DNA of 64,000 bases from Candidatus Micrarchaeota archaeon (lineage in GTDB: Archaea > Micrarchaeota > Micrarchaeia > Norongarragalinales > SBBD01): positions 256,001 through 320,000 of the forward strand of contig JAHJQN010000004.1 of the NCBI GenBank assembly GCA_018819225.1, given 5' to 3'. Shown one piece after another: positions 19,225-59,743 of the stretch (positions within the stretch are counted from its first letter, which is position 1; every line of letters starts with the position of its first letter). The notes below the pieces were generated by a model that saw only the letters and a program-made list of their open reading frames with translations, did no database searches and had not been told where the DNA came from. The translations under genes were made by a program, and so were the position numbers.

Positions 19225-19680
19225 ATGTATGCGCTACCCGTTTACGGAATACTGGACGTTTTCACCGATTTGAAGTTTGTTCTTCAAGTCATCGTTTTTT
19301 CGTACATTTTATTCTGGCTCTACATGACCTTTCGGGACGTTCAAGTGCTATTCGGACTCGGGGCCATTGTGGCGGCCTATTTTGTTCTTTTGAACCCCAT
19401 TTCCACGACCGTTTTACTCGTCTTGTTCTTCGCATTCGTGCTCATGGGAATGCACTTCCAAATGTTGTTCCAATTCGGATTATTCCCCTTGCTCCGGTTC
19501 TTTGGAGTGGAAATGGAGCATCCCGAAATGGTGGAGCAACAAAAAATGCAGAAAATTGAACAGAAGTTGATGCACGGCCAAGAACTCTCTGCCGATGAAG
19601 TGTCGTTCCTGGAAAAGAGCCAGAGAAAACAAATGGATTACCAGAAGAATATGCAGCAATACATGAGGCCGCCCACATGA
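19225..19680 (+). CDS. Hypothetical membrane protein
   Basis: 3-4 TM helices, Q/E/K-rich tail. Confidence 0.7.
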   Translation: MYALPVYGILDVFTDLKFVLQVIVFSYILFWLYMTFRDVQVLFGLGAIVAAYFVLLNPISTTVLLVLFFAFVLMGMHFQMLFQFGLFPLLRFFGVEMEHPEMVEQQKMQKIEQKLMHGQELSADEVSFLEKSQRKQMDYQKNMQQYMRPPT

Positions 19681-19952
19681 TCCAATCAATAATCGCCGCC
19701 GGCTTTCTGGAATGGATCCAGTACTTATGGTGGTTGTGGTTGTTCATCGTGGCATGGTTCTTCTACAACTGGGCCCGAGAACATCTAGCGTTCTCGCCGA
19801 TATTGACTCTCGCAGTGGCCGCCATATTGATTTTTTATTTGGTGATCGAACACCCCATTTTCGGCTCGATGACCTTGCTGGGGTGGACCTTATTATCCTC
19901 GGGAATCCTGTATTTATTGCCGTTATTCCTCCCGATGTTCAAAAAACGATGA
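19677..19952 (+). CDS. Hypothetical small membrane protein
   Basis: 3 TM helices; ATGA overlap with previous gene. Confidence 0.7.
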   Translation: MIQSIIAAGFLEWIQYLWWLWLFIVAWFFYNWAREHLAFSPILTLAVAAILIFYLVIEHPIFGSMTLLGWTLLSSGILYLLPLFLPMFKKR

Positions 19953-19968
19953 TATCGAAGGTGATGAT

Positions 19969-20319
19969 ATGAGTTTCAAAGAGTTCGTGAAAGCGTATAA
20001 GTACATCCACAAAACCCGCGCGTCATGGTATCATCTGCAATGGAGATTGTTTGCGATCGTCGTCGCTGCCGCAGCCATCGGGCTCATCCACAATTACTTG
20101 TTCTTCAAGTTCAACATCTTCTTGCCCGAGTATGGCGCCTTCCTGGGCGAACGCTTCTTTTACTGGTTCATGCTCGGCATCCTCTTCGGAATCGTGACCG
20201 TGGCCGCTGTATTCGAAGGCGAATTCATGCTCGGCGTACGTCGCGTCGCAAAAGAAGTGGAATCCGAAGCCCGGCAGGAATTCAAGAAACCGATTCGAAA
20301 ACGCCGACAACGCAGGTAA
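19969..20319 (+). CDS. Hypothetical membrane protein
   Basis: GGTGA SD, 2 TM helices, basic tail. Confidence 0.7.
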   Translation: MSFKEFVKAYKYIHKTRASWYHLQWRLFAIVVAAAAIGLIHNYLFFKFNIFLPEYGAFLGERFFYWFMLGILFGIVTVAAVFEGEFMLGVRRVAKEVESEARQEFKKPIRKRRQRR

Positions 20320-20356
20320 CGCGTTTTTAAAGAGCGAATCGCATAATAGGTTCAGA

Positions 20357-20417
20357 GAGGAGTGACCTCAAACCGCTGGTTCTTGCAAAAGAACCGGAAG
20401 GAGGAGATGCCCATATG
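20357..20417 (+). promoter_or_regulatory. endA 5' leader with BHB-like fold (candidate mRNA intron 20372..20406)
   Basis: CCTC(20366-69):GAGG(20401-04) helix, bulges AAA and AGA, 9-bp stem with GCAA tetraloop; TTTTTAAA box at 20324-31. Confidence 0.55.
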
Positions 20418-21578
20418 GCCGTACAGTTTGAACTCGACGACGACAAGTTACTAGTCAAAGACCTCATTTCCGTGCAAGCCCTTGACCGCGGATACTTTGG
20501 AACCGATTTTCAAGGTAAAAAAAATTTGCTCGAACTCATTCCAGAGGAAGCCTTGTACCTGATGGACGTACGCAATGCGATCTGCCTGAAAAAAAAGCGA
20601 AAAATTTCATTTAACCAAGTCGCCCGAAGACACAACAAGGAAAAGAAGTTTCTGGCACGATACTTTTGTTACAAGGATTGGCGCGATCGCGGCATCATTG
20701 CCCGACGAATTGATCGCACGGACACCGAATACGGAAGAAGTCCCGTGGTCAAGTACCCATCGAAAGAATTCCTTCCACTACGCATCCACGCCAAGGCGAT
20801 GTTCTTCTCCGACGATCTCATGGCCATCATTGATGACGAAACCGAAGGTCAGCGGGTCTATGAAGAACGATGGTTCGGACAATACGGAACCTATAAAGCC
20901 AAAAAGCACGGCCGATTTTTGAAACTGGATGCGTACGAAACCTTGTTTCTCATCAAGCACGCCGGATTGAAAACCAATGTCAGTGAAACGCAATTGATTC
21001 GAGCCTGCCAAAAACGACGAAAAGACTTTCTCGCGCTCTATGAAGTGTTTGAAGACTGGCGTCTGCGTTCATTCGTACTCAAAACGGGTTTCAAGTTCGG
21101 AACGCATTTTCGCCTATATTTTCCGGGCGCATCCCCGAAACTAGGCAATGAAGAGTGGATGCATAGCAAGCACGTCATTCACGTGTTCCCTCGCGAAAAT
21201 AAGATGTTAATTAGCGAATGGGCCCGCGCCATACGGGTGGCACACGGCGTCAAAAAAACGTTTATTCTCGCGATACCGGGGGTGAAAACTGAAAAACCAG
21301 CGGAAGTCGATTTCTTGTTGTACCACCGCAAGAAAGGCGGCCTCATCGAAAACCCAAAACAGGATTCCCCGAAATTTGTTATGCTTGCTTTGAGCGAAGA
21401 AGAAGAAATTGGAGGAGAAGAATTGGCGCAAGCCATTGAAAAATCTAAGGGAATGGGGTTGGATCTCATGCTCGCGATCTGCGACCGAGAAACCGCCATA
21501 ACCTACTATCGAGTGAAGCGCGTCGAGCTCCCGAAAAGCAAGTACGAGTACTATGAGATTGAATGGAAGCAACCCTAA
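20415..21578 (+). CDS. endA: tRNA splicing endonuclease, three-unit (ARMAN epsilon2-like) type
   Basis: LIPEEALYL...YKDWRDRG (first unit), LDAYETLFL...KTGFKFGTHFRLY...HSKH...RVAHGVKK (catalytic Y/H/K), C-terminal unit AICDRETAITYYRV; 387 aa. Confidence 0.93.
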   Translation: MAVQFELDDDKLLVKDLISVQALDRGYFGTDFQGKKNLLELIPEEALYLMDVRNAICLKKKRKISFNQVARRHNKEKKFLARYFCYKDWRDRGIIARRIDRTDTEYGRSPVVKYPSKEFLPLRIHAKAMFFSDDLMAIIDDETEGQRVYEERWFGQYGTYKAKKHGRFLKLDAYETLFLIKHAGLKTNVSETQLIRACQKRRKDFLALYEVFEDWRLRSFVLKTGFKFGTHFRLYFPGASPKLGNEEWMHSKHVIHVFPRENKMLISEWARAIRVAHGVKKTFILAIPGVKTEKPAEVDFLLYHRKKGGLIENPKQDSPKFVMLALSEEEEIGGEELAQAIEKSKGMGLDLMLAICDRETAITYYRVKRVELPKSKYEYYEIEWKQP

Positions 21579-31274: not shown

Positions 31275-31373
31275 GCCTCCGTAGCTCAGGGGTAGAGCGC
31301 CTGTCTTGTAGGGATGGTTAGAAACGCGTTCCAAGAAAACAGGAGGTCGCGAGTTCAATTCTCGCCGGAGGCT
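31275..31373 (+). tRNA. tRNA-Thr(TGT) with 27-nt intron at 37/38 (31311..31337)
   Basis: Acceptor GCCTCCG/CGGAGGC, anticodon stem CCTGT/ACAGG, T arm GCGAG-TTCAATT-CTCGC; BHB helix CTTG:CAAG. Confidence 0.95.
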
Positions 31374-40776: not shown

Positions 40777-41055
40777 TGCAGTCTCCAAGCTGGCCGGGGA
40801 GCTAGAGGTTCCCTATCATCGCCAATCCTCTTTACGGCGAGCGGTGGTTGGAGCGAGGAAAAGACGTCAACGTGCAGTCCGGTCAACGCCGTCGATGTCT
40901 CGCCTCATGTTATGTTTTTGAGTACGAATGGGCCAGGCCGGAAGGAGCAACCCTAAGCACTGAAGAGCATGCTCATGAGAACCGAGGCGGAGGCAATGAT
41001 TGGAGTCCCTGCATGCGGACGTTTTTTTCAAAGCCCAACGTGCTCGGAGGCTGCA
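40777..41055 (+). ncRNA. ffs: Archaeal SRP (7S) RNA
   Basis: Helix-8 motif GGCCAGGCC-GGAA-GGAGCAACC; terminal pairing TGCAGTCTCCAAGC with GCTCGGAGGCTGCA; ~280 nt; CTTAAAA box upstream. Confidence 0.9.
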
Positions 41056-56809: not shown

Positions 56810-56930
56810 AGCGGGGGACGAGAATCGAACTCGTCTAATCCGCTCGCTGCAAAAACCCCCATTCTAAGATAAAATGGATATCGAACGGGTTTTACTGCAG
56901 GCGGATGCATAACCAATCTGCCACCCCCGC
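56810..56930 (-). tRNA. tRNA-Cys(GCA) with 50-nt intron at 37/38 (56845..56894)
   Basis: Acceptor GCGGGGG/CCCCCGC, anticodon stem TCCGC/GCGGA, T arm ACGAG-TTCGATT-CTCGT; BHB helix CTGC:GCAG. Confidence 0.94.
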
Positions 56931-59580: not shown

Positions 59581-59717
59581 GGCGTGGGTCGTCTAGTCTG
59601 GTCTAGGATTGGGGACTGTGGTTTTTGCGCCGTAAAGCAAAAGCAGAAATCCCCCGACCTGAGCTCCTCTCCTTTAAACGAAAGAAGAGGGCAGGAATTC
59701 AAATCTCAGCCCACGCC
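59581..59717 (+). tRNA. tRNA-His(GTG) with encoded G-1 and two introns: 37/38 (59622..59648) and 53/54 (59664..59697)
   Basis: Acceptor GCGTGGG/CCCACGC, anticodon stem GGGGA/TCCCC; both introns form BHBs (CTGT:GCAG; CCTG:CAGG); removal restores CTGAG-TTCAAAT-CTCAG. Confidence 0.93.
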
Positions 59718-59743
59718 CTCATACCCTTAAAAGGCGAACGACC

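Follow-up and report, generated by a model that had tools for sequence, protein, structure and literature searches.

EndA, the archaeal RNA splicing endonuclease, is the equivalent of RNase III in stem processing, and it cuts its bulge-helix-bulge (BHB) substrates after the second base of each bulge. In E. coli, RNase III, a nuclease that processes pre-rRNA stems, cuts the 5' UTR of its own rnc gene and thereby lowers its own level (Bardwell 1989; PMC8708148). Archaeal mRNA splicing has very few targets in print, namely cbf5 and the HVO_1309 leader (PMC7714728). The cbf5 pre-mRNA intron of Crenarchaeota is removed by EndA-type splicing at a BHB-like motif; it lies in the coding region, and its removal restores the gene (Watanabe 2002; Yokobori 2009, PMC2738675). 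The 5' UTR of HVO_1309 in Haloferax volcanii carries a short BHB intron (46 nt), which EndA cuts in vitro and for which a circle was seen; this is a peptidase gene whose expression seems to be favoured by splicing, and the accessible sections of the report do not describe removal of a Shine-Dalgarno sequence (SD) (Schwarz 2020, PMC7714728). The endA mRNA of Haloferax is leaderless.

Here, we describe an endA leader from a Micrarchaeota archaeon that resembles all three systems: like HVO_1309, it holds a putative short BHB intron in an mRNA leader; as with cbf5, EndA-type splicing would act on an mRNA; and, as with rnc, a stem-processing nuclease would cut its own leader and lower its own level. 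It differs from rnc in that enzyme and motif are unrelated and that the rnc transcript is destabilised, with no SD excised as an intron. Unlike removal of the cbf5 intron, predicted removal of the endA leader intron takes the SD away and, in contrast to both rnc and HVO_1309, the piece predicted to be excised is the enzyme's own SD. No description of a BHB in an endA leader was found in the literature searched, a search outside which most subscription papers lay.

The gene lies in a window of 64,000 nt, by which we mean the whole stretch of DNA analysed. Its product carries the Pfam domains PF01974 and PF02778 and matches the epsilon2 EndA of Ca. Micrarchaeum acidiphilum ARMAN-2 over its full length (PDB 4FZ2, E 6e-125), whose catalytic triad (4FZ2, 9W2K; PMC12397907) is kept as Tyr235/His250/Lys281. 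A three-unit chain of ~390 aa, homology to the ARMAN-2 enzyme and the Tyr/His/Lys triad, which define an epsilon2-type EndA, were all found, and the close homologues are from Micrarchaeota, several of them named Norongarragalinales. The gene at 20415-21578 is thus the epsilon2-type endA of a Micrarchaeota archaeon (Norongarragalinales). Only one endA copy was found in the genome, which also contains rtcB. Epsilon2 EndA accepts relaxed motifs and cuts both BHB and BHL substrates (PMC12397907), in agreement with the tolerance for relaxed motifs that an earlier, sequence-only reading of this DNA had ascribed to ARMAN epsilon2 enzymes. Upstream of endA, a phosphomutase gene is followed by three small hydrophobic ORFs (151, 91 and 116 aa; window 19225-20319, +) without Pfam match. 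The features of the locus are as follows.

19969-20319, + strand: co-oriented ORF before endA, 116 aa, without Pfam match, ending 95 nt before endA
20324-20331, + strand: TATA-like box TTTTTAAA; transcription start predicted near 20350-20356, upstream of the BHB
20357-20365, + strand: SD1, an SD-like word GAGGAGTGA, specific to the genome under study; pairs with CCTC in a competing hairpin
20366-20369, + strand: 5' strand of the BHB central helix, CCTC; consensus C/A-Y-T-Y
20370-20372, + strand: AAA, the 5' bulge, with the cut predicted to fall between positions 20371 and 20372
20372-20406, + strand: predicted 35-nt intron, which takes in the hairpin and the larger part of the SD; relatives have introns of 30-98 nt
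20373-20400, + strand: inner hairpin with one C-G pair, a 2x2 loop, a 9-bp stem and a tetraloop; relatives keep the pairing while the sequence is free
20401-20408, + strand: true SD GAGGAGAT, with 7 of 8 matches to the 3' end of the genome's 16S rRNA
20407-20454, + strand: out-of-frame 15-codon ORF from a 'decoy' ATG; real in the sequence, not conserved
20415-21578, + strand: endA, a 387-aa three-unit epsilon2-type RNA splicing endonuclease (by Pfam, homology to 4FZ2 and the triad)

All leader elements named in the sequence-only reading lie where it had placed them, with the transcription start itself a prediction. The central helix is a canonical 4-bp one (CCTC/GAGG, four Watson-Crick pairs), and the two 3-nt bulges (AAA and AGA) each lie 3' of a central-helix strand, as a canonical BHB needs. 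On the inner side, C20373 pairs with G20400, followed by the 9-bp stem (20376-97) with its GCAA loop; on the outer side, A20365 pairs with U20408. Because GAGGAGAT matches the 16S rRNA 3' end (GAUCACCUCA) at 7 of 8 positions and has the usual spacing, the SD consists of the 3' helix strand (GAGG, 20401-04), the 3' bulge (AGA, 20405-07) and the first exon bases, up to the outer-pair base 20408, with the predicted 3' cut falling between 20406 and 20407. The flanking helices have one pair per side in the window copy, which is among the weaker ones; in relatives, the inner helix is well supported and the outer one has 0-5 bp (80% paired). The element has a relaxed BHB geometry, not that of a strict BHB.

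In computed folds of the window leader, the strict BHB lies 1.9 kcal/mol above the minimum-energy fold. In the ensemble, the central helix has a probability that ranges from 0.26 to 0.65 with the choice of 5' end; the value is ~0.1 for the C-G pair beneath the bulge and ~0 for the outer pair, and only the 9-bp stem is firm. SD1 and CCTC form a small hairpin that competes with the central helix, and this role of SD1, which would free the true SD, may outweigh a role as decoy. Geometry alone is near chance: among the 659 other gene leaders in the genome, 62 (~9%) pass the BHB scan with the criteria kept fixed, at scattered registers, and the window holds 28 BHB-like folds with 3-bp flanks; it is conservation that sets the leader BHB above chance. 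A scan without the energy-gap filter matched nearly every leader, including the controls, and was dropped. Searched against the Rfam cis-regulatory families, the leader gave no match, either above the gathering threshold or when E values as high as 1 were admitted.

Searches of endA leaders covered Micrarchaeota. In an unanchored scan, 29 of the order's 55 genomes had a BHB, and 28 of these shared one register, as compared with BHBs in 6 of 83 other Micrarchaeota and 0 of 26 rtcB leaders of the order; the same scan did not find the element in the small-genome families sampled (f13 and f14). With metagenome loci added, the order provided 87 distinct endA leaders, of which 51 were BHB-positive and 49 were in the common register, so the fold is conserved in related genomes. 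In an anchored scan, 50 of 56 SD-bearing endA leaders had a BHB, versus 25 of 303 other SD-bearing genes of the studied genome; in reading these counts, it should be borne in mind that the leaders had already been seen when the thresholds of the scan and the sequence anchor were chosen, and that kin are not independent. The consensus is a central strand C/A-Y-T-Y, a bulge A-R-N, a variable hairpin, GAGG and a 3-nt bulge (mostly AGA). Among the 49 common-register leaders, the intron varies from 30 to 98 nt while both bulges stay at 3 nt, and the start codon lies 4-12 nt beyond the 3' cut. Their central helix is fully paired in 32 and has an A-G mismatch at its outer end in 17; an A-G mismatch also occurs in the central helix of the tRNA-Leu intron of the studied genome.

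Pairing was also maintained through sequence change. In 46 aligned copies, 88.8% of the cells were paired, versus 72.4% in shuffles, with 79 double changes versus 24, while slid controls were 40-59% paired. Because this set had passed an energy filter, pairing was recounted with sequence anchors only. The 5' anchor, itself derived from these leaders, was present in 52 of the 55 SD-bearing ones, and inner pairs 2-4 were Watson-Crick in 42, 38 and 31 of the 52, versus 4, 3 and 10 of 25 control genes. Twenty double changes were counted across 20 disjoint tree-neighbour pairs. The stem pairs adjoining the bulge thus covary; the central helix shows one-sided changes only, because the SD leaves its 3' strand no freedom to vary. 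The sequence-only reading had proposed to look across endA leaders for a covarying BHB and a conserved out-of-frame ATG: the covariation was found, while the ATG proved not to be conserved.

A covariance model of the element gave a single match in the whole studied genome, at the endA leader; in the order, 29 of its 32 matches were at endA, and it was nearly silent in other orders. The motif that the enzyme recognises is thus a conserved and specific feature of its own leader. Matches away from endA were rejected in G057 and G017, where they lie inside reading frames, and in G013 and G076, where they are weak and the SD does not evidently precede a gene start. A near-perfect endA leader motif was seen before an unrelated gene in G095 (L362; C21:14309-14362), which we take to be DUF126-like; the motif is absent in 24 relatives. 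The distribution of the element is patchy, with 13 changes on the tree, and it is dispensable, since ~40% of the order is without it.

The predicted consequence of excision is the same throughout the common register: the SD is removed in all 49 leaders, and the median computed SD pairing energy changes from -8.3 to -1.5 kcal/mol, with weaker pairing in 49 of 49 (the anti-SD of the studied genome was applied to all leaders). An EndA-spliced intron is one whose removal restores a functional RNA; the leader element fails in this respect and would instead behave as an off switch. Leaders of the order fall into those with a strong SD and a BHB (50), with neither (26), with an SD only (10) and with a BHB only (1), and several SD-only leaders look by eye like BHB near misses. 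The start codon is GTG or TTG in 30 of the 49 BHB leaders, whereas it is ATG in 25 of the 26 leaders with neither SD nor BHB; the spliced product would therefore be of a kind that hardly ever occurs among intact genes. In most leaders, TATA-like boxes lie upstream of the 5' helix strand at a distance of 30-55 nt, so both BHB strands should be transcribed. In computed ensembles of the leaders, the central helix is rarely formed (median probability 0.03, versus 0.74 for the inner stem) and the SD is mostly unpaired. Their outer helices have 0-5 bp, versus 4-8 bp in the tRNAs of the studied genome.

A second BHB type was found in six endA leaders (L085, L100, L264, L272, L278 and L287) that form a separate, well-supported clade; two of them belong to family f17, of which Ca. 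Fermentimicrarchaeum is also a member. This type has a central helix CGAT/GTCG, a 31-33 nt intron and a 3' bulge AGG, unrelated in sequence to the first, and its 3' cut would fall inside GAGGTG, reducing SD pairing from ~-11 to ~-3 kcal/mol; the start codon is TTG in 5 of 6. Since sequence and register differ while the result is the same, these data suggest that the second type arose separately, although it may also be a shifted descendant of one common ancestor. The endA leader L210 (G173, family f19) has a helix GCAT/ATGT and a 3' bulge AGG in the second-type register. Other designs were observed as well. Six endA leaders from Anstonellaceae and kin (L089, L096, L097, L101, L102 and L276) share a hairpin that overlaps the SD; it has an internal AG/AG loop, does not form a canonical BHB and is possibly a third control structure. 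In family f7 and kin (L056-L058, L225, L228, L235, L236, L253 and L259), a ~28-nt invariant block around the TATA-like box upstream of endA, with neither SD nor BHB, looks like a conserved promoter or operator.

Reference substrates of EndA are present nearby. The four tRNA BHBs that the sequence-only reading had counted in the window do exist, in Thr(UGU) (27 nt), Cys(GCA) (50 nt) and His(GUG) (27 and 34 nt).

31311-31337, + strand: BHB intron of tRNA-Thr(UGU), at position 37/38; reference substrate
56810-56930, - strand: gene of tRNA-Cys(GCA), interrupted by a BHB intron of 50 nt; reference substrate
59622-59648 and 59664-59697, + strand: two BHB introns of tRNA-His(GUG), the second non-canonical, at the T arm

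Removing both introns of tRNA-His(GUG) yields a clean tRNA-His. ARAGORN and Rfam at default settings missed most tRNAs of the window, which were recovered by in silico splicing; the tRNA-His(GUG) gene at 59582-59720 was among those missed by both.

BHB introns were also found in protein-coding sequence. Six of them, 27-51 nt long and at two sites, interrupt rtcB in five genomes of the order (loci L311 in G017, L314 in G039, L316 in G027, L318 in G020 and L320 in G006), and a cut after the second bulge base restores the motifs HEGYG and GYDINCG exactly, through stops and frameshifts. Because splicing restores these conserved motifs, cells of the order very probably do cut and join mRNAs at BHBs. 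The rtcB gene of the studied genome has no BHB intron. Four of the five genomes with rtcB introns (G017, G027, G039 and G006) also have the endA leader element. In the rtcB genes of G013, G015, G026, G031, G032 and G040, large in-frame insertions were observed near Pfam position 47-50, which are probably inteins.

We propose that EndA finds in the leader of its own gene a substrate that is weak by design and has the Shine-Dalgarno sequence of that gene at its core, and that this leader would give negative feedback, with spare EndA cutting this substrate and removing its own ribosome-binding site; to this reading we assign a probability of about 0.7. The uncut mRNA would be the translated form, with an SD that is available because the central and outer helices are mostly open, and its stable inner hairpin would keep the BHB strands close. 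EndA beyond what pre-tRNA and pre-rRNA occupy would capture the leader BHB and cut it as it cuts its other substrates. The 3' cut alone would leave the coding region on a 4-12 nt leader without an SD; exons joined by RtcB would give a product that still has no SD, and most such genes start with GTG or TTG. EndA synthesis would then drop until substrate draws the enzyme off. The comparison shows the conserved geometry, the covariation, the SD inside the intron and the loss of SD pairing in the computed product; the start of transcription, the cutting and joining of the RNA, the direction of the effect and the competition with tRNA precursors are inferred. Since the intron holds the SD, EndA action should shut off endA translation, and this central proposal of the sequence-only reading is borne out at the level of the conserved BHB. 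A rarely formed central helix and short outer helices fit a substrate whose default fate is translation and which only spare enzyme would cut; the weakness of the fold is also the main reason for doubt.

This weakness would suit an enzyme that binds the BHB, blocks the SD and rarely cuts, and so acts as a translational repressor of its own mRNA. The helix and 3' bulge are the SD itself, the motif is often mismatched, and binding alone would also select the geometry; however, the catalytic triad is kept, the enzyme is a competent nuclease on BHB and BHL substrates (PMC12397907), and both bulges are fixed at 3 nt, as cleavage needs, and we regard repression by binding as unlikely. The element might instead have no control function, being a neutral or selfish mini-intron of the sort seen in rtcB, a plain hairpin beside the SD or a DNA signal, with the 5' strand and bulge serving as a TATA box. 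Mini-introns with a BHB are indeed present in rtcB genes of the order, CTTTAAA resembles a TATA box, and the distribution is patchy. Against this, removal of a harmless intron restores function, while the leader intron takes the SD along in 49 of 49; the common variants CTTCAAA, CCTCAAA and ACTCAGT are poor TATA boxes, and separate TATA-like boxes lie 30-55 nt further upstream; the bulge-adjoining stem pairs covary, and the covariance model matches essentially only endA. An absence of function is thus quite improbable.

The sign of the effect could also be the reverse: the hairpin would hide the SD region, and the cut would free a short-leader mRNA for leaderless-like translation, which would be positive feedback. 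The cut does leave only 4-12 nt, relatives without the element have short SD-less leaders, and any archaeal mRNA type can start with GUG or UUG (PMC7531240); splicing of the HVO_1309 5' UTR likewise seems to favour expression (PMC7714728). A strong SD at normal spacing would, however, be purposeless in the intron of 50 leaders if the cut form were the active one. In addition, the SD is mostly unpaired in the ensemble, a missing SD combined with GTG or TTG occurs in only 1 of 26 intact genes, and leadered mRNAs without an SD went untranslated in a Saccharolobus system (PMC7531240), which makes activation very unlikely. In the sequence-only reading, the switch worked by moving an upstream SD through splicing onto the out-of-frame ATG at 20407. 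The ORF at 20407-20454 translates as it had claimed, with endA starting at 20415, and the geometry fits the studied genome: SD1, with a computed pairing of -6.5 kcal/mol, would come to lie at normal spacing to this ATG, an unligated 3' piece would start exactly at AUG 20407, and the nearest relative also has the ATG. Yet an ATG opens the 3' exon in only 4 of the 49 leaders, 7 have an SD-like word ahead of the 5' cut, and only the leader of the studied genome has both, where 0.57 would be expected by chance; the nearest relative lacks SD1; and the ATG is not enriched, since the AT at the start of 33 of the 3' exons is forced by the SD and only 4 of these continue with G. The swap is also unneeded, as SD loss explains the shut-off, and as the working switch it has the slimmest chance of all the readings. 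We take the decoy to be accidental or supplementary and local to one genome, and SD loss to be the conserved switch; because the geometry allows it, the swap may add to the shut-off locally in the studied genome.

Negative feedback through SD loss has a wider form, which we consider probable on balance: archaeal splicing would serve as an off switch, with EndA excising its own ribosome-binding site in two Micrarchaeota lineages that use different sequences and registers, and, where rtcB introns are also present, the EndA level would lower the nuclease and permit ligase synthesis, thereby balancing cutting against joining. If true, this would give archaeal mRNA splicing a clear regulatory job and RNase III autoregulation an archaeal counterpart, and it suggests how a nuclease of broad specificity, able to cut chance BHB folds in mRNAs, stays in check. 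The proposal is directly testable: recombinant epsilon2 EndA and an assay exist, the substrates are 50-70 nt long, and 55 natural variants can serve as compensatory mutants. A possible use is an EndA-gated translation switch.

Several further features were observed. In the window, positions 40783-41049 (+) match the archaeal SRP RNA below the gathering score (80.8 bits, E 2e-16). On contig C3 of G000, a group-I-like intron with an ORF interrupts the 16S gene near its 3' end (~98390-99100; L292), and the anti-SD, CACCUCA, follows this intron at ~99200. The same tRNA-like stretch occurs at two contig ends of G000 (C3:111056-111167 and C5:30-141), which suggests that C3 and C5 overlap.
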